Of a stretch of 64,000 bases of DNA, positions 5,990 to 52,269 are shown piece by piece (positions within the stretch are counted from its first letter, which is position 1; each line of letters starts with the position of its first letter). The DNA comes from Bacillota bacterium (GTDB taxonomy: Bacteria; Bacillota; Clostridia; Christensenellales; UMGS416). Location of the stretch: NCBI GenBank assembly GCA_023435705.1, contig JAEYRH010000009.1:264572-328571 (forward strand). Direction: 5' to 3'. The notes beneath the pieces were generated by a model. It was not told the DNA's origin. It was given only the letters and a program-made list of their open reading frames with translations, and did not search any database. The position numbers and the translations under genes are program-made.

Positions 5990-6023
5990 GCCAGAAAGGG
6001 CGAGCCATTCAGATGACTCGCCC
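5990..6023 (-). terminator. Intrinsic terminator after the 4Fe-4S protein gene
   Basis: GGGCGAG (5998-6004) pairs with CTCGCCC (6017-6023), 12-nt loop. On the minus strand it is followed by TTTCTGG. Confidence 0.5.
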
Positions 6024-6040
6024 GCTTGCCTTGGCTAGAG

Positions 6041-6802
6041 TTAGCCGATGATTTCGCCGTTGGTGTCGATTGTGACCACCTGCCAGGGGATCATCACCCC
6101 GGCGTTCATCATCGCTTGCTTTGCTGCGTGCACGATGCCGCCGCAGCAGGGCACCGACATCCGCAGCACAGTCAGAGACTGAATCTCATTTGCCCGCAGG
6201 ATCATCTCAAGCTTCTCGGCATAATCTGCGTCGTCCAGCTTGGGGCAGCCGATCAACGTGACGCGGCCCTTCATCCACTTGCTGTGCACATTGGCATTGG
6301 CATAGGCAGTGCAGTCTGCCGCCACCAGCAGGTGGGCATTGTTGAGGTAGGGCGCAGTGGGCGGCACCAGCTGGATCTGAACCGGCCACTGCCGCAGTTC
6401 TGACGGTTGCTCGCCGGCTGGGGCGGTTGCGGCTGCTTCCACCGGTTGGGCGGGTTTGCGCTCGATGGACCGGGCGTGGGTGCCGGGGCAGCCGCAGGCA
6501 AGAGTGCCGTGGCCGCCATGGGCAGCTTGGGCTTTCGGCGGCTCCGCCGGCTTGTTCTTCTCTGCCAGGTGCTTTTCAACAGCCGCCGCGTCAAACGCCG
6601 CCGCTTCCCGCTCCTCAATGTGAATGGCATCCACCGGGCAGGCCGGCAGGCATGCGCCCAGGCCGTCGCAATAGCTTTCGCTGATGAGTCTGGCCTTTCC
6701 GTCGATCATCTGGATCGCGCCTTCGTGGCACGCGTTGGCGCACAATCCGCAGCCGTTGCATTTTTTTTCGTCTATGGTGATGATGTTTCGTTTCATTTTC
6801 AT
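6041..6802 (-). CDS. 4Fe-4S dicluster domain protein with Cys-rich C-terminal domain
   Basis: ATG 6802 is preceded by GGAGGC. Two ferredoxin motifs, CNGCGLCANAC and CDGLGACLPACP. Ala/Pro-rich linker, then a C-terminal domain with CTAY...GCPK...VPCCGG. The ORF-track start at 7120 runs through an AT-rich promoter region and is rejected. Confidence 0.8.
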   Translation of the reverse strand: MKMKRNIITIDEKKCNGCGLCANACHEGAIQMIDGKARLISESYCDGLGACLPACPVDAIHIEEREAAAFDAAAVEKHLAEKNKPAEPPKAQAAHGGHGTLACGCPGTHARSIERKPAQPVEAAATAPAGEQPSELRQWPVQIQLVPPTAPYLNNAHLLVAADCTAYANANVHSKWMKGRVTLIGCPKLDDADYAEKLEMILRANEIQSLTVLRMSVPCCGGIVHAAKQAMMNAGVMIPWQVVTIDTNGEIIG

Positions 6803-6905
6803 GCCTCCGTGTTTCTGATGGTTGTATTGTACCTTCATTCTTTGTTTCCATCGGTAACTTGGGCAACAAATCTTGTTTGTGATGAAAAAAATCCAGATAT
6901 ATATC

Positions 6906-6940
6906 TTGACGCGATATATCACGATGTAATATAATCGTGA
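6906..6940 (+). promoter_or_regulatory. PadR promoter overlapped by an inverted-repeat operator candidate
   Basis: TTGACG (6906-6911), 18-nt spacer, TATAAT (6930-6935). TCACGAT-N8-ATCGTGA (6919-6940) spans the -10 box. TCGTGAT recurs at 6955-6961. Confidence 0.5.
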
Positions 6941-6991
6941 TGTAGTATAACGAGTCGTGATATAACGCACTCTGTTATAACGGAGGAACCA

Positions 6992-7324
6992 ATGGAAATT
7001 GATAAGTTGAAACACGAATACCTGCCCATGTCGGAGACGGCGTATTACATGCTTCTTTCGCTGGGCGAGGTGCGCCATGGCTACGGCATCATGCAGCATG
7101 TGGAGGAGCTCACAAACCACCGCATCCGCCTTGGCGCAGGCACCGTCTATGGCACGCTTTCCCGAATGGAGAAAGATGGCCTGATCCGCGCGGTGGCAGA
7201 GGTGGAGCGGCGCAAGCTCTATCAGATCACCGCTGCCGGCGTGGGATTACTCAAAGCAGAAGCTGCTCGAATCAGGGAGCTATATGAAAATGGAAAAAGG
7301 GTAAGAGGTGATATATATGATTGA
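6992..7324 (+). CDS. PadR family transcriptional regulator
   Basis: 110 aa. YYMLLSLGEVRHGYGIMQHVEELTNHRIRLGAGTVYGTLSRMEKDGLI is a classic PadR winged helix. Confidence 0.9.
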   Translation: MEIDKLKHEYLPMSETAYYMLLSLGEVRHGYGIMQHVEELTNHRIRLGAGTVYGTLSRMEKDGLIRAVAEVERRKLYQITAAGVGLLKAEAARIRELYENGKRVRGDIYD

Positions 7325-7856
7325 GAGGCAGACGAAAATTCTGTGGTGGTGGCCGTGGCAAACCGACAAGGTGGAGGCTTATCTGGAAACGCAGGCCGGT
7401 GAGGGTTGGGTGCTGGTGAAAGCCGGCTGGGCATGCGCGAGCTTTACCTTTGAGCGGCGCAACCCGGCCCGGGTGCGCTATTGCCTGGACTACCAGGAGA
7501 AGATGAAGCCAGACTACCAGGCGCTGTTTCAAGATGCCGGGTGGAAGATGGAGTATCACGGATCGGGCTGGTACATCTGGAGCATGCCATACGAAGGGGT
7601 GCGGCCGGCGATCTATACCGACGATGGCTCCTTGATCAGGCGCAACAATGCCATCCTGGCTTCGGTGAGCGCGGTGCTGGCTGCGCAAATGCCCATGGCT
7701 GTCGTTACGCTGCAAAACCTCGATGAAAAGTCATCGTTTATCTTGGCATTGGCCGTTGTTTGGGCTTTTTGCATGGCATTGCAGGCAGGAGTCGTCGTTG
7801 GCATGGCCGTGGGCATCAACCGGCTGAAGCATAGGAAAAGCAAACGGGCGCTTTAG
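7317..7856 (+). CDS. DUF2812 family membrane protein (PadR-associated)
   Basis: N-terminus MIERQTKILWWWPWQTDKVEAYLETQAGEGWVL plus C-terminal TM helices. The family usually follows PadR. Start is 7317 or 7308; both overlap the PadR stop. Confidence 0.75.
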   Translation: MIERQTKILWWWPWQTDKVEAYLETQAGEGWVLVKAGWACASFTFERRNPARVRYCLDYQEKMKPDYQALFQDAGWKMEYHGSGWYIWSMPYEGVRPAIYTDDGSLIRRNNAILASVSAVLAAQMPMAVVTLQNLDEKSSFILALAVVWAFCMALQAGVVVGMAVGINRLKHRKSKRAL

Positions 7857-34429: not shown

Positions 34430-34503
34430 GCGGGTGTAACTCAATGGTAGAGTTCTAGCTTCCCAAGCTAGCTACGTGGGTTCGATTCCCATCACCCGCT
34501 CCA
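34430..34503 (+). tRNA. tRNA-Gly (anticodon CCC)
   Basis: Hand-folded cloverleaf. Acceptor GCGGGTG/CACCCGC, D arm ACTC-AATGGTA-GAGT, anticodon arm CTAGC-TTCCCAA-GCTAG, T arm GTGGG-TTCGATT-CCCAT, encoded CCA. Confidence 0.9.
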
Positions 34504-45866: not shown

Positions 45867-46676
45867 TTAGTCGCTTGACCACGAATCCACAAAGCTCCTG
45901 GCAATCTCATCGATCACCTTGTTGGAGAGCACATATTCCACCAGGTCGCCATCCACATAAGCCTTATCAAAAGTCAGGCTGATTACCTGGTAGGAAGCTG
46001 TGCCACCATCGTCAATCACCGGGCCGCCTACGATCACGGAGACCTGCCGGCGGATGGTCATGCGCCGGGAGCTATCAGCGGACGGAGTATCGCACAGCAT
46101 GGTGATCACCCTTGCGTCCATCTTGTATGCCGGCGTTTCCCACAGCATCGGGGTGGCATCTTCCGGCATCAGGGAAAGCCAAGGTTCGTCCGGATAGGAC
46201 TCAATTTGTTCGATTAACCCCACTGCCCTGCCTGTGCTGTCCAGAATGATGGGCTGGAATTCTTCTGCGTCCAGCATGGTCCAGCCCCCGGGAAGCCGCA
46301 GTGCGCCCCAGGTTGTGGTGATTGCCTGGCTTGCAAGCTTGAGTGCAGGATACTTCGCAGGATCCTTGTCCTCCGCCACATCCAGCCAGGGGCCGGTGTA
46401 ACCCACCGACTTCGGCTCCGGCCAGGGTGTCAGCTCCGGTGTTTTTGTCTCAAAGTCCTCGGCAGGATCGTTGGTTTGCGCTGTGACTTGCGCAGAGCCC
46501 GCTGGCTCGCCGGTCATCATGACGGCAGTGGGCGCTGGGCTTGTGCTCCCCGTGGATGCAGCCGTGCCGGAGCACGCTGCCAGCACCAGCGGCAGCGAAA
46601 CCACCAATGCGATGGTCACCCAGCTGGCAAAGGCTGTCCTTGCTTTTTCTGTGGATTTGTTTGGTTTTTCCTTCAT
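45867..46676 (-). CDS. Hypothetical lipoprotein
   Basis: ATG 46676. Lipobox VSLPLVLAAC|SGT after a basic N-terminus, then a Thr/Pro-rich linker. No family recognised. Confidence 0.6.
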   Translation of the reverse strand: MKEKPNKSTEKARTAFASWVTIALVVSLPLVLAACSGTAASTGSTSPAPTAVMMTGEPAGSAQVTAQTNDPAEDFETKTPELTPWPEPKSVGYTGPWLDVAEDKDPAKYPALKLASQAITTTWGALRLPGGWTMLDAEEFQPIILDSTGRAVGLIEQIESYPDEPWLSLMPEDATPMLWETPAYKMDARVITMLCDTPSADSSRRMTIRRQVSVIVGGPVIDDGGTASYQVISLTFDKAYVDGDLVEYVLSNKVIDEIARSFVDSWSSD

Positions 46677-46778
46677 GGCAGAAGAATACTGCCTGTGGGT
46701 ATCGTTGTCAACCAAAACGGGAATTGCGGAAGGAATTTCCCAACCGGCGTCAAATCAATAGTCAAAGAGGCGATTGGT

Positions 46779-47621
46779 ATGGGGGAAGCGTTGTTTTATG
46801 AGCGTCTGCCAACAGGAGCAGTGAAGTGCCTGCTGTGCCCCCATGGCTGCGTGATCGGCGAAGGCAGCCGTGGCATTTGCGGTGTGCGGGAAAACAGTGG
46901 CGGAATGCTGCACTCCATGAATTATGGTCTGCTCACTTCCATCGCCGCCGACCCGGTGGAAAAAAAGCCGCTGCGGCATTTCCTGCCGGGCACGCGCACT
47001 CTCTCCTGCGGCAGTTTCGGCTGCAACCTGATGTGCCTGCATTGCCAGAACTGGCAGATCGCCAGAGGCAGGCCCGGCGCCATTGAGATGACTCCGCAGG
47101 CATTTGTGGCGATGGCCCGCGAGCAGGATTGCCCGTCGGTGGCATTCACCTACAACGAGCCCGGCATGTTTTATGAGTGGGTGCTGGAAGCCGCCCGCGT
47201 CGCCCATGCCGTGAGTTTGAAGACAATCCTGGTCACCAACGGATACCTGAACCGGGAGCCGCTGCTGCGACTCCTGCCCCACATCGATGCGATGAACGTG
47301 GATTTGAAGGCCTTCACCGAAGAGGGCTATCTCAAGGTTGGCGGCAGGCTCGCGCCGGTGATGGAGTATATTGAAACTGCTCAGGCATGCTCTCATGTGG
47401 AGGTCACGATGCTGCTTGTGCCCGGCATCATTGACACGGTGGAGGAAGTGGAGAGGGCTGCCAAGTGGCTTGCTGGCCTTTCACCGGAGCTGCCGCTGCA
47501 CCTGTCTCGGTGCTTCCCTGCTTTCCGGCACACGGCGGAGCCCACTTCGATCCCGTTTATGCACAAGGCGGCAGAGGCGGCTCGGAAGCATTTGAAACAT
47601 GTGTATCTGGGGAATGTGTAA
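46779..47621 (+). CDS. AmmeMemoRadiSam system radical SAM enzyme
   Basis: ATG 46779 after AAAGAGG. N-terminal CLLCPHGCVIGEGSRGICGVR auxiliary Cys cluster, radical-SAM CNLMCLHCQN, 280 aa. The ORF-track start at 46476 is rejected. Confidence 0.85.
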   Translation: MGEALFYERLPTGAVKCLLCPHGCVIGEGSRGICGVRENSGGMLHSMNYGLLTSIAADPVEKKPLRHFLPGTRTLSCGSFGCNLMCLHCQNWQIARGRPGAIEMTPQAFVAMAREQDCPSVAFTYNEPGMFYEWVLEAARVAHAVSLKTILVTNGYLNREPLLRLLPHIDAMNVDLKAFTEEGYLKVGGRLAPVMEYIETAQACSHVEVTMLLVPGIIDTVEEVERAAKWLAGLSPELPLHLSRCFPAFRHTAEPTSIPFMHKAAEAARKHLKHVYLGNV

Positions 47622-47675
47622 GCATCGGGAATATCGCAGGGTCATTCATGTTCATTGGATGGAGGAAAGAGAGAT

Positions 47676-49118
47676 ATGAGCATCATCGGCGCGGCGTTTT
47701 ATCCGCATCCGCCGCTTGTTTTGCCGGAGGTGGGGCAGGGCCAGGAGCGGGCTGCTGCCGCTACAATCGCAGGAATGGAGCGGCTCAGTGCAATGGTCGC
47801 CGAATTGAAGCCACAAGTCGTGGCCGTGGTGACACCCCATGGGCCAGCTTTTTCCGACGTGATCGCCGTAACTGACGCGAAGGAGCTGAGCGGCACAATG
47901 GAGCGCTTCCGCGCGCCGGAGGTGAGGCTCACAAAGCCCGTGCATCAGGCGCTGCTGAGCGCTTTTGAGGAAGAGTGGAGCCGTGACAACCTGCCGGTGG
48001 CGAGGCTGGATGGAGCGACACTCCGCAAGCTAGGCGCCAAAGCGGAGCTGGATCACGGAGCGCTTGTGCCACTCTTTTATTTGGAGAAGCAGTATTCAGA
48101 TTATGCCATCCTGCACATTTCACCCGGCGGCCAGCCATTGCGCAGGCAGTATCTGGCCGGCCAGGCGCTGGCCCGGGCGGTTGAACGCCTGGGGATTTCG
48201 GTGCTGGTGCTGGCCAGCGGCGATATGTCCCACAAGCTCAAATCCAGCGGGCCCTATGGCTTTGATCCGGCTGGGCCGCAGTTTGACAAGCTCATTGCCG
48301 ATGCCATCCGCTCCGGCACACCAGGCAGCATTCTTACCATTGACCCTGGCCTTGCCCGCAGCGCCGGTGAGTGCGGCTGGCGGCCGGCGGCTTTCGCGCT
48401 GGGGGCGCTGGACGGTCTGGCAGTGGAGAGCCAGCTGATCAGTTATGAAGGCCCTTTTGGCGTGGGGTATCTCACGGCACTTCTGTCAGCGAAGGAAGGC
48501 GCTGCACCGGGCTTTTTGGACGAACTGGACCGCGCTGAACAGGGCAGGGCTGCTGCAGCTCGCATGAATGAGGATGCCTATGTGCGCCTGGCGAGGGAAA
48601 CCATCGAGCGGTATGTCCGTGGTGGCCGCAAGCCTCAGTGGGCGGAGTTGAAGCAAGGCATGAGCGAGCTGGACACTCTCAGGATGGAGAAACGCAAGGC
48701 CGGTGCGTTTGTGTCGCTCCATTTGGAAGGTGAGCTGCGGGGCTGCATGGGCACCATCGTGCCGGTTTGTCAGCATGTGGGGGAGGAGATCATCCGCAAC
48801 GCTGTGACCGCCTGCAGTGACGACCCACGCTTCCCACCGGTGCAGGCTGACGAATTGCAGGGCCTTGCGGTGAAGGTTGATGTGTTGAGCCCCTTTGAGC
48901 CGGTGGCATCACCGGACGAATTGGATCCGGCGCGATATGGCGTGATCGTGGAGAAGCAGGGGCGGCGGGGTTTGCTGCTGCCGGCACTGGATGGTGTGGA
49001 CACCGTGGAGCGCCAGCTGGAGATCGCCTGCCGGAAGGCAGGGTTTGCCTGGAAGGCAGGCGATGGGGCAATCAAGCTCTTCCGCTTCACGGTGGAACGG
49101 CACGGAGAAGAGGATTGA
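47676..49118 (+). CDS. Fusion protein: LigB/Memo-like (class III extradiol dioxygenase B-like) domain + AMMECR1 domain
   Basis: ATG 47676 after GGAGGAAAG. N-half has FYPHPPLVLPEVG, TPHGP, LDHGALVPL, SGDMSHKL. C-half has AGAFVSLHLEGELRGCMGTI...DDPRFPPV...YGVIVEKQGRRGLLLP (AMMECR1). Confidence 0.8.
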   Translation: MSIIGAAFYPHPPLVLPEVGQGQERAAAATIAGMERLSAMVAELKPQVVAVVTPHGPAFSDVIAVTDAKELSGTMERFRAPEVRLTKPVHQALLSAFEEEWSRDNLPVARLDGATLRKLGAKAELDHGALVPLFYLEKQYSDYAILHISPGGQPLRRQYLAGQALARAVERLGISVLVLASGDMSHKLKSSGPYGFDPAGPQFDKLIADAIRSGTPGSILTIDPGLARSAGECGWRPAAFALGALDGLAVESQLISYEGPFGVGYLTALLSAKEGAAPGFLDELDRAEQGRAAAARMNEDAYVRLARETIERYVRGGRKPQWAELKQGMSELDTLRMEKRKAGAFVSLHLEGELRGCMGTIVPVCQHVGEEIIRNAVTACSDDPRFPPVQADELQGLAVKVDVLSPFEPVASPDELDPARYGVIVEKQGRRGLLLPALDGVDTVERQLEIACRKAGFAWKAGDGAIKLFRFTVERHGEED

Positions 49119-49203
49119 CCTGCCTGCAAGCTTAAGGTTCATGCTCTAGGTGAGAATTTATGATATAATTCTGAACTGCACAAAAGTGCAGTTTGGAGAT
49201 CGC

Positions 49204-49890
49204 ATGACACCGCAATCGGAATTCAGCATCCGTATTCTGGATAAAGGCCCCTATATCGTGACCGGCGGCGTGCCTCTTTGGGATTATTCGATCATATCTG
49301 ACCGTATGGGTACAGCCACCGACTACCGGCCAGACAGGGAGTATCCCCCGGCACAGACCTATTCGCTGTGCCGGTGCGGCAAGTCCAAACACATGCCATA
49401 TTGCGACGGCTCCCACAGCCAAGCGGGCTTTGTGGGCCGGGAACGTGCCAGCCGCAAGCTCTTCGCCGAGCAAGCTGTTGTCTTTCGGGGCCCCGGCCTC
49501 ATTTTGGAGGATGTGGAGCACTTATGCATGCTGGCGCGGTTCTGCCACCTGGGCGGAGACACCTGGACGCTCATCGAGCGCTCCGGCGATCCCCGTGCCC
49601 GTGACCTTGCGATCCGGGGCGCGGTTAATTGCCCGGCCGGCAGGCTGGTCGTTCGTGACGCGCAGTCCGGTGAATTGATTGAGCCGGAGCTTGAGCCCTC
49701 CATCTGGATGCTGCGTGATGACCTCACCGGCTATTCGGGGCCGCTGTGGGTGCGGGGCGGCATCCCGATCATCTCTGCTGACGGTACGACCTATGAGGTG
49801 CGCAATCGCGTAACGCTGTGCCGCTGCGGTCAATCGTCCATCATGCCGTTTTGCGACGGGTCGCATATTATGACTAGGTTCAAGGGATAG
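49204..49890 (+). CDS. CDGSH iron-sulfur domain protein (two CDGSH motifs)
   Basis: CRCGKSKHMPYCDGSH and CRCGQSSIMPFCDGSH. 228 aa from ATG 49204. Confidence 0.85.
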   Translation: MTPQSEFSIRILDKGPYIVTGGVPLWDYSIISDRMGTATDYRPDREYPPAQTYSLCRCGKSKHMPYCDGSHSQAGFVGRERASRKLFAEQAVVFRGPGLILEDVEHLCMLARFCHLGGDTWTLIERSGDPRARDLAIRGAVNCPAGRLVVRDAQSGELIEPELEPSIWMLRDDLTGYSGPLWVRGGIPIISADGTTYEVRNRVTLCRCGQSSIMPFCDGSHIMTRFKG

Positions 49891-49902
49891 GAGAATTTGT
49901 GT

Positions 49903-50427
49903 ATGAACCTTTGGCTGACCATGCCCGACGGAGCGCTGCAGCCCGGCTTTTTTGCCATGCTGGCTGCCTTCCGCGATATGCGGGAGGAGCGTTACCGTGA
50001 TATTTATGACGACCAGGCCTTTGACTTTGCGGCTTATGTCGCTGAGTTGAATGGGTTCAGCCGGGGAGAAAACCTGCCGGAGGGTTGGGTGCAGGCATCG
50101 GTGTTTTGGTTGACTGACGGCAGTCAGATCATTGGCACTGGCCGGGTGCGGCATATTGCCGATGAGGAACTGCTCCATGACGACGGAAACATCGGCTATG
50201 ACATCAACCCCCAATTTCGCAGGCAGGGGTATGGCACATTGATGCTTGCCCTGCTGTTGGATGAAGCGAAAAAGATGGGGATGGAAAAAGCCCTTGTCAC
50301 GTGCGAAAGTGACAATGAGGGCTCAAGAAAAATTATCGAGAAGAACGGAGGCGTTTATGCGGGGGAGTCTGTTTCAAAGGAGAACGACAAGACAGTTTTG
50401 AGGTTTTGGGTGGCGGCTGCCGAATAG
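49903..50427 (+). CDS. GNAT family N-acetyltransferase
   Basis: ATG 49903 after AGGAG. FRRQGYGTLMLALLLDEAKKMG acetyl-CoA site, EGSRKIIEKNGG. Confidence 0.8.
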   Translation: MNLWLTMPDGALQPGFFAMLAAFRDMREERYRDIYDDQAFDFAAYVAELNGFSRGENLPEGWVQASVFWLTDGSQIIGTGRVRHIADEELLHDDGNIGYDINPQFRRQGYGTLMLALLLDEAKKMGMEKALVTCESDNEGSRKIIEKNGGVYAGESVSKENDKTVLRFWVAAAE

Positions 50428-50446
50428 CAGACGGTTCGGTCTGGCA

Positions 50447-51259
50447 TCAGTTGGGTCGCAGCATCAACTGCCTGGCAGCCTCCCTGGCTTCTTTTTCATG
50501 CCCTTCCGGGATTGGAATCTCAACTATATCCTTAAATATTACCAGATAAGTATATTGGATTAGCAGGACAGGGCTCGTGCTGTTCTTCATTACCTCCGCT
50601 TTTTCCAACCTTGTGAATTTTCCGTCCCACCAAAATAACTGGCCGATTAGCCATACACCGCCATGTGATATAATGACTTCTCCAGAATCTTGCAGAATTG
50701 CCTTGCGTCTTTGCCCCCGAGACAATAAGTAAACACCGGCAATCAATACACAACAGCCCACAGCCCCAATAAGAAACAACATCGTATTCGCAGGGTAGAT
50801 TGCCCATAATCGTATCCCATTGATAAGGGCTATAATGGCAACCACAACGAAAAAAACCGGTGATTTTTTTACAGGGTTTGTACTGACTTTTTTCAAAGCT
50901 TGACGGCGCAATTTATCCAGTTCTGTCTGACCATAGCTCCAGCGCGCATACACATCTTCGTCATTGTCCATACGCCTGAACACATCAAACCTGCTAGAGT
51001 ACCACATGGACATAAAGATTCCAGTAAGCAAGAGCACCAACCCTAGCTGTGGACCTACTGTTTGAATAAATATTTGTATGAAACTCGTTTGCTGGCGAGC
51101 CAAGAAGAGGCTCGTTGATGCAACTTGTGTTTGGATCCTTATGAACATTGGGGCTATGATCAAGATGATTCCAACAACGACAATTGAGACGCTAGACAGC
51201 AAACCAGGGACACCTTTGCGTTTCATGAGCAACCTCAAAGTGCTGATTCTCAGACTCAT
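50447..51259 (-). CDS. Hypothetical membrane protein (4-5 TM helices plus a C-terminal soluble domain)
   Basis: 270 aa. Hydrophobic segments such as LLSSVSIVVVGIILIIAPMF and VFFVVVAIIALINGI. The stretch is AT-rich relative to its flanks. No family recognised. Confidence 0.55.
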   Translation of the reverse strand: MSLRISTLRLLMKRKGVPGLLSSVSIVVVGIILIIAPMFIRIQTQVASTSLFLARQQTSFIQIFIQTVGPQLGLVLLLTGIFMSMWYSSRFDVFRRMDNDEDVYARWSYGQTELDKLRRQALKKVSTNPVKKSPVFFVVVAIIALINGIRLWAIYPANTMLFLIGAVGCCVLIAGVYLLSRGQRRKAILQDSGEVIISHGGVWLIGQLFWWDGKFTRLEKAEVMKNSTSPVLLIQYTYLVIFKDIVEIPIPEGHEKEAREAARQLMLRPN

Positions 51260-51477
51260 TATAGCAAAAGATTACAATAAATGATATATGCGCCTGGTCA
51301 TGATACTTTGTTTGAGGGTCAATACGGCTGATCATTCAACTTCCTCGCCGCAGCCCATGCCTCTTCCTCTCAACACGGGGTAGAGTGATGGCCAGCAGGC
51401 CGAGTGCGGAGAGGGTGATGCCGGTGATATGCCGGAGTTTGCGTTTCGAGACAACATAGTACCCTCGTTGTGTACTA

Positions 51478-52269
51478 TCACTCTGTAAGGTAAATCCTAT
51501 TATAGAGAGCCTCAGCCCGCAGGTATGCCTCCCGCAGAAACACCGCCGGTTCTTTGAACCTGGAGTGTGTTATCATCACTTCCATCAACAGCGGCGCTTT
51601 GTAGCCCGATTGCTGTATCAGGCTGCAAATCTCATCGAAGTCAATAAACCCCTCGCCGGGCAGCACATGATCCACAAATTCCATGATCCTGTCTGACAGA
51701 TGAACCGCCAGCAGCCGATGCTTCCATTGCTCCAACAGCGTGAATGTCCTTGGGCCATCCACCTGGTCGTGTGACGAATCATAACAGAAACCGATATGCT
51801 CCGGGTTTGCTGCTGCCAGCGCGTTCGTCACCAAATCGGTGGCAATCCCCGGCATGACGTTTTCCAGCGCGAAACGGATGCCCGCATTCTTTGCGATTGC
51901 CTCCAAAGACGGTAGCATTGTGATAAGGTCTCTGTTTCGTTGTTTATATTCTTCTGGCTTGAAGTCAAATGCGCTGCAATGCAGCACAATCACCGGCGCG
52001 GAAAGCAACACGGCGGCATCGGCTACCTGTTTGGTAGTCTCCAGAGCATCCGGCATGTCCAGCGAGTCGCTGTGAATGGTATCCATTGAAAGGCCGTGCG
52101 ACTTCAGTTGGTCGTTCAGTTGCTTGGCTGTGAGGAGATTTATGATACCGCTGTGGTGGTAGTTGCTGCCTAGGGAGACATGCGTGAAGCCAGCATTTTT
52201 GATCAATGGTAATTGCTCGCGCAGGGGGATGGAATAGTCGAAGCAGGTCGATATGGAGATGTTCTTCAT
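51478..52269 (-). CDS. Sugar phosphate isomerase/epimerase (xylose isomerase-like TIM barrel)
   Basis: 263 aa. GFTHVSLG, ALENV, VHLSD and LMEV pattern typical of the AP-endonuclease-2/TIM family. Confidence 0.78.
   Translation of the reverse strand: MKNISISTCFDYSIPLREQLPLIKNAGFTHVSLGSNYHHSGIINLLTAKQLNDQLKSHGLSMDTIHSDSLDMPDALETTKQVADAAVLLSAPVIVLHCSAFDFKPEEYKQRNRDLITMLPSLEAIAKNAGIRFALENVMPGIATDLVTNALAAANPEHIGFCYDSSHDQVDGPRTFTLLEQWKHRLLAVHLSDRIMEFVDHVLPGEGFIDFDEICSLIQQSGYKAPLLMEVMITHSRFKEPAVFLREAYLRAEALYNRIYLTE

Follow-up and report, generated by a model that had tools for sequence, protein, structure and literature searches.

The main question raised by this locus is whether the AmmeMemoRadiSam system, present here as a radical SAM gene followed by a gene for a fusion of a LigB/Memo-like and an AMMECR1 domain, has gained two further components in the form of the CDGSH and GNAT genes that come next on the same strand. 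MEMO1 and AMMECR1 are both disease-linked, so that the triad of Memo, AMMECR1 and radical SAM enzyme is relevant to human disease; a further conserved component could have helped to explain what this triad does, and our surveys of 80 + 80 loci show none. We consider it probable (roughly 80%) that the locus is a standard two-gene fused AmmeMemoRadiSam module as typical of anaerobic Bacillota, and that the CDGSH and GNAT genes are unrelated, lineage-specific neighbours and not components of the system.

The four genes form a block within the window (the whole stretch of 64,000 nucleotides that was analysed) that is flanked on either side by minus-strand genes (45867-46715 and 50447-51259). The genes, strands and spacings described in the earlier note agree with the ORF list (spacers of 54, 85 and 12 nt, in gene order; Table 1), and all of its motifs were recovered in the translations (GCNLMCLHCQN and the N-terminal CLLCPHGC...C of the radical SAM protein, PHGP, LDHGALVPL, SGDMSH, LRGCMGTI, DDPRFPPV and RRGLLLP of the fusion, and the two CDGSH motifs as two copies of CRCG..x..CDGSH in the 228-aa protein). 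The start codons are consistent with the homolog lengths of 280, 480 and 228 aa in a 91% relative (L001), and none of the four proteins occurs a second time in the window. The family scores of the locus are far above chance.

Table 1. Features of the AmmeMemoRadiSam locus and the genes downstream of it (positions in the window)
Feature	Position	Strand	Size or extent	Basis or remark
Radical SAM gene	46779-47621	+	280 aa	ORF list
Fusion gene (LigB/Memo-like + AMMECR1)	47676-49118	+	480 aa	ORF list
LigB/Memo-superfamily domain	47676..48515	+	fusion residues 1 to ~280	equivalent of the 'B' component
AMMECR1 domain	48576..49100	+	fusion residues 301-475	'A' component
Extended -10-like element TGATATAAT	49161-49169	+		sequence read directly; consensus-level match
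13-bp hairpin	49170-49198	+		base-pairing involves GGAG (49195-49198), the ribosome-binding site of CDGSH; consensus-level match
CDGSH gene	49204-49890	+	228 aa	ORF list
GNAT gene	49903-50427	+	174 aa	ORF list

The radical SAM protein scored 246.9 bits against TIGR04337 (cutoff 220) and 66 bits against PF04055, and contains the SAM-cluster motif C82-x3-C86-x2-C89 as well as an N-terminal four-Cys site (C17, C20, C24 and C34). Among 73 aligned orthologs the cysteines of the CX3CX2C motif are kept in 100%, and the four N-terminal cysteines are 96% conserved. About 60 C-terminal positions of the TIGR04337 model (349 positions) are absent from the protein; a truncation or frameshift was nevertheless rejected, because most orthologs stop at the same place (59/73 at most 9 residues from the end of the window protein), which makes 280 aa the majority length. 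A radical SAM protein of this length with an N-terminal four-Cys site is the usual form in fused systems.

The C-terminal half of the fusion protein is clearly AMMECR1 (PF01871, 150 bits over residues 303-475; TIGR04335, protein A, 124.8 bits with a cutoff of 99), with PH0010 (1vaj) and MM0484 (1zq7) as PDB matches. In an alignment of 96 sequences L354, R355, G356, C357, G359 and T360 of the motif LRGCMGT (residues 354-360) are invariant. The predicted structure of the complete fusion consists of two confidently packed domains (pLDDT 95, pTM 0.88). The identification of an AmmeMemoRadiSam locus was thus upheld, as both the radical SAM protein and the A component score above the NCBI curated cutoffs, and so was that of a fusion between a LigB/Memo-superfamily and an AMMECR1 domain, by Pfam scores and Foldseek. 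The earlier note had also taken the fusion as an informative clue to the coupling of the two parts, a point that did not hold: the architecture is widespread, with more than 7600 database matches (120 of the 120 among the matches listed having PF02900 plus PF01871) and confirmed loci in at least 597 species genomes, and has already been named by NCBI, several matches being called "AmmeMemoRadiSam system protein A" or "A/B". Fused LigB plus AMMECR1 is the standard, already known, Bacillota form of the system.

The N-terminal half is the less obvious part. It passes for LigB (PF02900, 121-123 bits over residues 6-265, cutoff 26.3) and stays below the cutoff for Memo (PF01875, 11.5 bits, cutoff 27) and for protein B (TIGR04336, 19 bits, cutoff 26). 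Of the family profiles named in the earlier note, TIGR04337, TIGR04335, PF01871 and PF02900 matched and TIGR04336 and PF01875 did not, and the possibility that this half is neither Memo nor LigB did not materialise. Within the fused family, 50 of the 96 members reach an E-value of at most 5e-6 against TIGR04336 (about the cutoff) and 23 of the 96 match a MEMO1 model, so that the N-half is a divergent homolog in the B position of AmmeMemoRadiSam. By Foldseek its nearest structure is TK2203 (5hee, TMt 0.83), the class III extradiol dioxygenases follow at TMt 0.72-0.80 and MEMO1 is more distant (TMt 0.52-0.55). H55, D126, H127, D183, H186 and C233 are invariant among the 96 sequences, and H11 and E258 nearly so. 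In a comparison with the 2-His-1-carboxylate Fe(II) site of aminophenol dioxygenase, H11 and H55 fall on the two ligand histidines and E232 on Glu251; the position of the Glu ligand is E in the window protein and E, Q or T across the family, while the neighbouring C233 does not vary. In a weak hhalign alignment (E = 0.012) D183, H186 and C233 correspond to D189, H192 and C244 of MEMO1. The fused B-like domain thus has a dioxygenase-type fold, yet retains a Cys of putative Memo type directly beside a carboxylate position that has degenerated.

The domain can be compared with two known groups. With the class III extradiol dioxygenases of the PCAD clade, its best matches in sequence and fold (TK2203, the HPCD-type 8iq8 and 2-aminophenol 1,6-dioxygenase 3vsg), it has both His ligand positions and the catalytic histidine H186 in common, but the family lacks a conserved carboxylate ligand, has the invariant Cys directly after that position, and is fused to AMMECR1 with a radical SAM partner in mostly anaerobic hosts. 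With MEMO1/Memo (PF01875; 3bcz, 7kq8) it shares the superfamily and the prokaryotic pairing with AMMECR1 and radical SAM, whereas its PF01875 score is low and its fold clearly less similar than to the dioxygenases. One could argue from the strong PF02900 score, the nearest solved structures and the aligned ligands H11, H55 and E232 that the N-half is a true O2-dependent extradiol dioxygenase of aromatic catabolism, the AMMECR1 fusion and the adjacent radical SAM gene being incidental. We regard this as very improbable: besides the variable Glu position and the Cys that aligns with Cys244 of MEMO1, half of the fused family scores as AmmeMemoRadiSam protein B, the AMMECR1 fusion and a neighbouring gene for an O2-labile radical SAM enzyme are seen again and again in hundreds of mostly anaerobic species, and no aromatic-degradation genes were found among the surveyed neighbour slots of the module.

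The relation of the CDGSH and GNAT genes to the module was evaluated in 80 species-representative loci, all of fused-type systems. The radical SAM gene was located inside the fetched locus in 68 of these and directly adjacent to the fusion gene in 65, with the order seen in the window (radical SAM before fusion) in a minority (5/65). A CDGSH homolog was found near the fusion in a single locus (L080), where it was rejected as an independent operonic recurrence because a 435-aa minus-strand ORF lies between the two genes. A GNAT of the window type was found near the fusion in 0/80 loci, and GNATs of any kind occupied 4 of 284 nearest-neighbour slots. Conversely, 0/80 loci around CDGSH homologs contained an AmmeMemoRadiSam module. 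Across independent lineages CDGSH and GNAT are therefore essentially not co-conserved with the module, an outcome that the earlier note had named as refuting its reading. When the closest two genes to either side of the module were sorted by Pfam, 160 and 124 different families were counted, and no family occurred more than 6 times in about 140; the fused module is a self-sufficient pair of genes whose surroundings differ widely from genome to genome. Compared with fused-type AmmeMemoRadiSam in general (TIGR04335/TIGR04336/TIGR04337, A and B joined), the window has the same adjacent genes with radical SAM and AMMECR1 scores above the cutoffs, and a 480-aa LigB plus AMMECR1 protein identical in form to thousands of others (e.g. 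in Acetobacterium woodii, Alkalibacter and Oscillospiraceae); it differs in the minority gene order, in the B-half that remains below the TIGR04336 cutoff and in the trailing CDGSH and GNAT genes, which are not a family trait. A full-text literature search for AmmeMemoRadiSam or AMMECR1 together with radical SAM or LigB returned passing mentions only.

Among near relatives the picture is more mixed. CDGSH and GNAT are retained only where the region as a whole is syntenic. Of 7 distinct near-clade arrangements, 5 include CDGSH and 3 include GNAT, the occurrence of one not depending on that of the other, and the radical SAM-fusion pair is maintained in close relatives while CDGSH and GNAT each drop out separately. 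The GNAT gene is missing from the 91% relative and from a 70% relative, and found in a 67% relative and, there without CDGSH, in a 69% relative. The GNAT start is overlapped by the stop codon of CDGSH in the 67% relative and by that of the fusion gene in the 69% relative, so that co-transcription of GNAT with the upstream genes is likely in this Oscillospiraceae-like genus. The affiliation is approximate, the one named relative in a PFK search being an Oscillospiraceae MAG at 73% identity. In one locus (L169) two unrelated genes separate the fusion and CDGSH genes. In the near clade, PFK and HD genes are kept alongside the module just as CDGSH and GNAT are, and the PFK identities of 85-92% indicate that these relatives are close; the adjacency of CDGSH and GNAT can thus be ascribed to a short divergence time, and their linkage to the module is no stronger than general synteny. 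In a sister clade the module is followed by glutaredoxin and SIR2 genes, a context of redox protein plus acyl-lysine enzyme that may be regarded as loosely parallel.

The spacer between the fusion and CDGSH genes holds a candidate promoter element and a hairpin (Table 1). TGGTATAAT is found at the corresponding place in the 91% relative, the RNA fold has a predicted energy of -24.4 kcal/mol (z = -2.1), and in two relatives the spacer measures 235 nt and contains hairpins. A promoter scanner that needs a -35 did not call the -10-like site in the spacer, no plus-strand terminators were detected between the four window genes, and an Rfam scan of the window and of loci L083 and L085 for riboswitches or leaders returned tRNAs only. 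CDGSH and GNAT probably owe at least part of their transcription to a start separate from that of the module.

The earlier note had proposed CDGSH as the electron donor and GNAT as a modifier, roles for which the surveys provide no comparative support, given that the near-clade linkage is no better than synteny either. A four-gene operon limited to this genus, in which the radical SAM cluster would be reduced by CDGSH and a product or substrate acetylated by GNAT, nevertheless deserves discussion. The shared strand, the short spacers, the lack of a called terminator between the genes, the recurrence of CDGSH and GNAT behind the fusion in near-clade arrangements (some with stop/start overlaps) and the glutaredoxin and SIR2 genes at the equivalent place in the sister clade are all in line with such an operon. 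Set against these are the results of both surveys, the separate loss of CDGSH and GNAT from close relatives that keep the radical SAM-fusion pair, the two genes inserted before CDGSH in L169, the equally conserved synteny of PFK and HD and the promoter-like element inside the spacer. Moreover, characterised CDGSH [2Fe-2S] clusters have potentials of about 0 mV, whereas reduction of a radical SAM cluster takes a far lower one of some -450 to -500 mV. We therefore consider the four-gene operon unlikely. Somewhat less likely still is that the fused module in this uncultured genus recruited two accessory partners, with CDGSH-Fer4_19-CDGSH as a small redox protein and the RimJ/L-like GNAT for acyl transfer; were this true, and the parallel in the sister clade functional, it would hint at a protein or protein-bound substrate whose redox and acylation state matter. 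Under the preferred reading of a two-gene module, the CDGSH and GNAT genes form a poor basis for inferring the substrate, and the locus gives no new handle on it.

For the two-gene module itself we infer a possible course of catalysis. The module comprises a PflA-like radical SAM enzyme and a single polypeptide joining B (a LigB/Memo-superfamily metal domain) to A (AMMECR1). A housekeeping ferredoxin or flavodoxin could reduce the radical SAM enzyme, upon which SAM would be cleaved to the 5'-deoxyadenosyl radical, and this radical might abstract hydrogen from the substrate, which the fusion protein would hold in place. The putative metal site of the LigB/Memo-like domain would be made up of H11/H55 and C233, with D183 and H186 assisting, so that ligands like those of Memo would sit in a scaffold resembling that of the dioxygenases; together with Cys357 of AMMECR1 it may complete an O2-independent conversion of a ubiquitous cellular substrate. 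Burroughs et al. reportedly proposed, in 2019, that this substrate is a nucleotide base or an isoprenoid.

The CDGSH protein scores 127.8 bits in total against PF09360 over two stretches, with a PF06902 hit below the cutoff in its middle (22.8 bits, cutoff 24), giving the architecture CDGSH-Fer4_19-like-CDGSH. Two sets of residues, C56, C58, C67 and H71 as well as C206, C208, C217 and H221, do not vary. The protein belongs to a very large, conserved and broadly distributed family, with homologs that are 50-57% identical in Chloroflexota, Nitrososphaerales and Margulisiibacteriota. With its two CxC-x-CDGSH motifs the protein is typical of prokaryotic multi-CDGSH proteins (PF09360 with a central PF06902-like domain), from which it stands out solely by its place beside the module in one clade. 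The GNAT protein (PF13302, 51 bits; PF00583, 42.8 bits) is an N-acetyltransferase of the Acetyltransf_3 (RimJ/RimL-like) type, and its gene has a GC3 of 0.646 versus 0.71-0.73 for the three genes upstream.

The radical SAM gene, the gene for the fusion protein (LigB/Memo-like N-half, AMMECR1 C-half), a gene for a double-CDGSH iron-sulfur protein and a GNAT acetyltransferase gene follow each other on one strand with gaps of 54, 85 and 12 nt, and the block is flanked by minus-strand genes (see table). Gene order, strand and the motifs quoted in the earlier note were all recovered in the ORFs and their translations. The radical SAM protein scored 246.9 bits with TIGR04337 (cutoff 220), the C-half of the fusion 124.8 bits with TIGR04335 (cutoff 99) and 150 bits with PF01871, and the N-half 121 bits with PF02900 (LigB). 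The CDGSH protein matched PF09360 in two stretches, with a below-threshold PF06902 match in its centre, and the fourth protein is a GNAT by PF13302 and PF00583. Among aligned orthologs the SAM-cluster motif of the radical SAM enzyme is fully conserved and its N-terminal four-cysteine site is 96% conserved. A truncated radical SAM enzyme was ruled out, as 280 aa is the normal length among the orthologs. The divergent gene upstream encodes a 282-aa protein with a lipoprotein-like N-terminus (LVLAACSG) and without a Pfam match; it is kept at this position in most near relatives (L001, L083, L085 and L170) and not in L169.

Features of the window around the radical SAM and fusion genes
Feature	Position	Strand	Remark
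tRNA gene	34430-34500		sole Rfam gathering-level match in the whole window
Lipoprotein-like gene	45867-46715	-	282 aa
Radical SAM gene	46779-47621	+	280 aa
Fusion gene	47676-49118	+	480 aa
Extended -10-like element	49161-49169		fusion-CDGSH spacer
Hairpin	49170-49198		13 bp
CDGSH gene	49204-49890	+	228 aa
GNAT gene	49903-50427	+	174 aa
Membrane protein gene	50447-51259	-	GC 0.448
Compositionally distinct patch	49903-52269		flanking genes GC about 0.60

The locus is a known, widespread module, which the earlier note described correctly. A search with the 480-aa protein gave more than 7600 significant matches, PF02900 and PF01871 were found together at 460-495 aa in 120/120 among the matches listed, and many matches are named "AmmeMemoRadiSam system protein A" by NCBI, UniRef and JGI. 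Scanning a single genome for each species confirmed at least 597 fusion loci, mostly in Clostridia and also in Negativicutes, Coriobacteriia, Spirochaetes and others, and public assemblies already contain the exact radical SAM sequence of the window as well as fusions more than 90% identical to its own. The fusion, which had been taken to argue for a physical coupling of the two non-radical-SAM components, is thus an ordinary architecture. In a Selenomonadaceae MAG (L075, 6001-7398) the fusion gene is split into ORFs 6001-6894 and 6919-7398, with no radical SAM gene in the surrounding 6 kb; the gene copy may be degenerating, or the assembly may have introduced a frameshift.

For the neighbours of the fusion gene we surveyed 80 loci, each representing a species and taken with 6 kb on either side. 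A radical SAM gene of the window type lay inside 68 of these and directly adjacent in 65, where the order was fusion to radical SAM in 60 and that of the window in 5. A CDGSH homolog was present in one locus (L080), a count with which a regex search for the CDGSH motif agreed, and was separated there from the fusion by a 435-aa minus-strand ORF; the window-type GNAT was present in none of the 80. A Pfam scan of the two nearest genes per side found 160 families in 138 proteins on one side and 124 families in 146 proteins on the other, the commonest being DAC/YbbR and Amidase_3 (6 each); GNATs of any kind occupied 2 + 2 of the 284 slots (about 1.4%), and the CDGSH family was not among the 25 most frequent. 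Since the neighbours are heterogeneous and the radical SAM gene is mostly adjacent, the conserved unit consists of two genes.

Contigs with fusions 65-91% identical to that of the window are from close relatives, as their PFK proteins are 85-92% identical.

Arrangement of the locus in near relatives
Locus	Fusion identity	Gene order
L001/L002	91%	radical SAM-fusion-CDGSH
L085	70%	radical SAM-fusion-CDGSH
L171	69%	fusion-GNAT, no CDGSH; contig begins just before the fusion and does not reach the radical SAM position
L083/L084	67%	radical SAM-fusion-CDGSH-GNAT
L169	67%	radical SAM-fusion-DUF4185-DUF386-CDGSH-hexapeptide transferase
L170	65%	radical SAM-fusion only

The CDGSH and GNAT genes are each gained or lost independently among these relatives. 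The upstream PFK and the downstream HD gene are conserved to the same degree, so that the linkage of CDGSH and GNAT is no stronger than background synteny. In L169 (6445-9387) the DUF4185 and DUF386 genes lie between fusion and CDGSH, and a hexapeptide-repeat acyltransferase, not a GNAT, follows CDGSH. In the next clade out (fusions 47-50% identical) glutaredoxin and SIR2 genes lie downstream of the module; in L086, L087 and L088 (5133-9114) they come after a gene for a 263-aa hypothetical protein or an unrelated Acetyltransf_1 GNAT. This arrangement loosely parallels the context of a small redox protein with an acyl-lysine enzyme in the window.

Seen from its own side, the CDGSH protein is one of a very large family that is highly conserved: homologs in Chloroflexota, Nitrososphaerales, Margulisiibacteriota and Saccharofermentanales share 50-57% identity with it. 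The fusion, the radical SAM enzyme and the window GNAT were found in none of 80 metagenomic loci that carry a CDGSH homolog; 44 of these loci span 5 kb or more. In two Clostridia-type MAGs one homolog adjoins a 2-oxoacid:ferredoxin oxidoreductase and the other stands alone. A 54% identical CDGSH-Fer4_19-CDGSH gene in a Saccharofermentanales MAG (L172, 5001-8246) is followed after 14 nt by a POR/TPP 2-oxoacid:ferredoxin oxidoreductase pair, a context that suggests a general electron-carrier role for this family. The potential of characterised CDGSH clusters is near 0 mV, versus about -450 to -500 mV for radical SAM clusters, and CDGSH would therefore be a poor reductant for the latter. The four-protein context of the earlier note, with CDGSH as electron donor and GNAT as downstream modifier, finds no support in the neighbour surveys or in the arrangements of near relatives, and there is only a slim chance that CDGSH and/or GNAT act as accessories of the module within this genus.

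The label "LigB/Memo-like" for the N-half was fair, and strict Memo membership fails: this half scores 11.5 bits with PF01875 (cutoff 27) and 19 bits with TIGR04336 (cutoff 26). A PDB search with the profile of the fused family returned TK2203 and extradiol dioxygenases, and a Memo structure was absent at E <= 10. The AlphaFold model of the fusion is of high confidence (pLDDT 95.1, pTM 0.88) and predicts a rigid two-domain protein; its N-half compares best with TK2203 (TMt 0.83), followed by HPCD-type and aminophenol dioxygenases (0.72-0.80), LigB (0.67) and MEMO1 (0.52-0.55), a ranking that agrees with the sequence order in placing LigB-like proteins ahead of Memo, and its C-half gave a TMt of 0.75 with PH0010. 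About the TIGR04336 cutoff is reached by 50 of 96 fused homologs, 23 of the 96 match a MEMO1 model, and some carry the annotation "protein A/protein B". By these matches the fused family straddles the LigB/Memo boundary.

The invariant residues of the N-half are H55, D126, H127, D183, H186 and C233, and those of the other domain form LRGC357xGT. The two histidines that bind Fe in aminophenol dioxygenase align with H11 and H55 of the fusion, and the Fe-ligand Glu of aminophenol and extradiol dioxygenases aligns with E232; position 232 is E, Q or T across the fused family, and C233 directly after it is invariant. In a weak hhalign alignment (E = 0.012) D183, H186 and C233 correspond to D189, H192 and C244 of MEMO1, whose sequence was checked against 7kq8. 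Judged by these alignments the active site looks hybrid, with a dioxygenase-like fold and a Memo-like ligand set. That the N-half is a true dioxygenase is argued against by the hosts, which are mostly anaerobes. In the O2-independent reaction that we propose, housekeeping reductants would charge the radical SAM enzyme, the 5'-deoxyadenosyl radical would attack a substrate bound by the fusion, and the Memo-like metal site together with the AMMECR1 cysteine would finish the reaction.

The fusion-CDGSH spacer contains an extended -10-like element, TGATATAAT, which is a consensus-level match only; the 91% relative L001 has TGGTATAAT in the equivalent position. The hairpin that follows pairs with the CDGSH ribosome-binding site, and these elements may give the CDGSH gene a promoter of its own or control its translation. 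In L083 and L085 the spacers measure 235 nt and contain hairpins, and an Rfam search gave no family match for the spacers. The GC3 of the GNAT gene is 0.646, lower than the 0.71-0.73 of the three genes upstream, and the gene adjoins a low-GC variable patch. The compositionally distinct patch also includes, besides the membrane protein gene, an AP_endonuc_2 gene (GC 0.519). Three different minus-strand genes fill the equivalent interval in L001, so the site between CDGSH and the HD gene is one of variable insertion.
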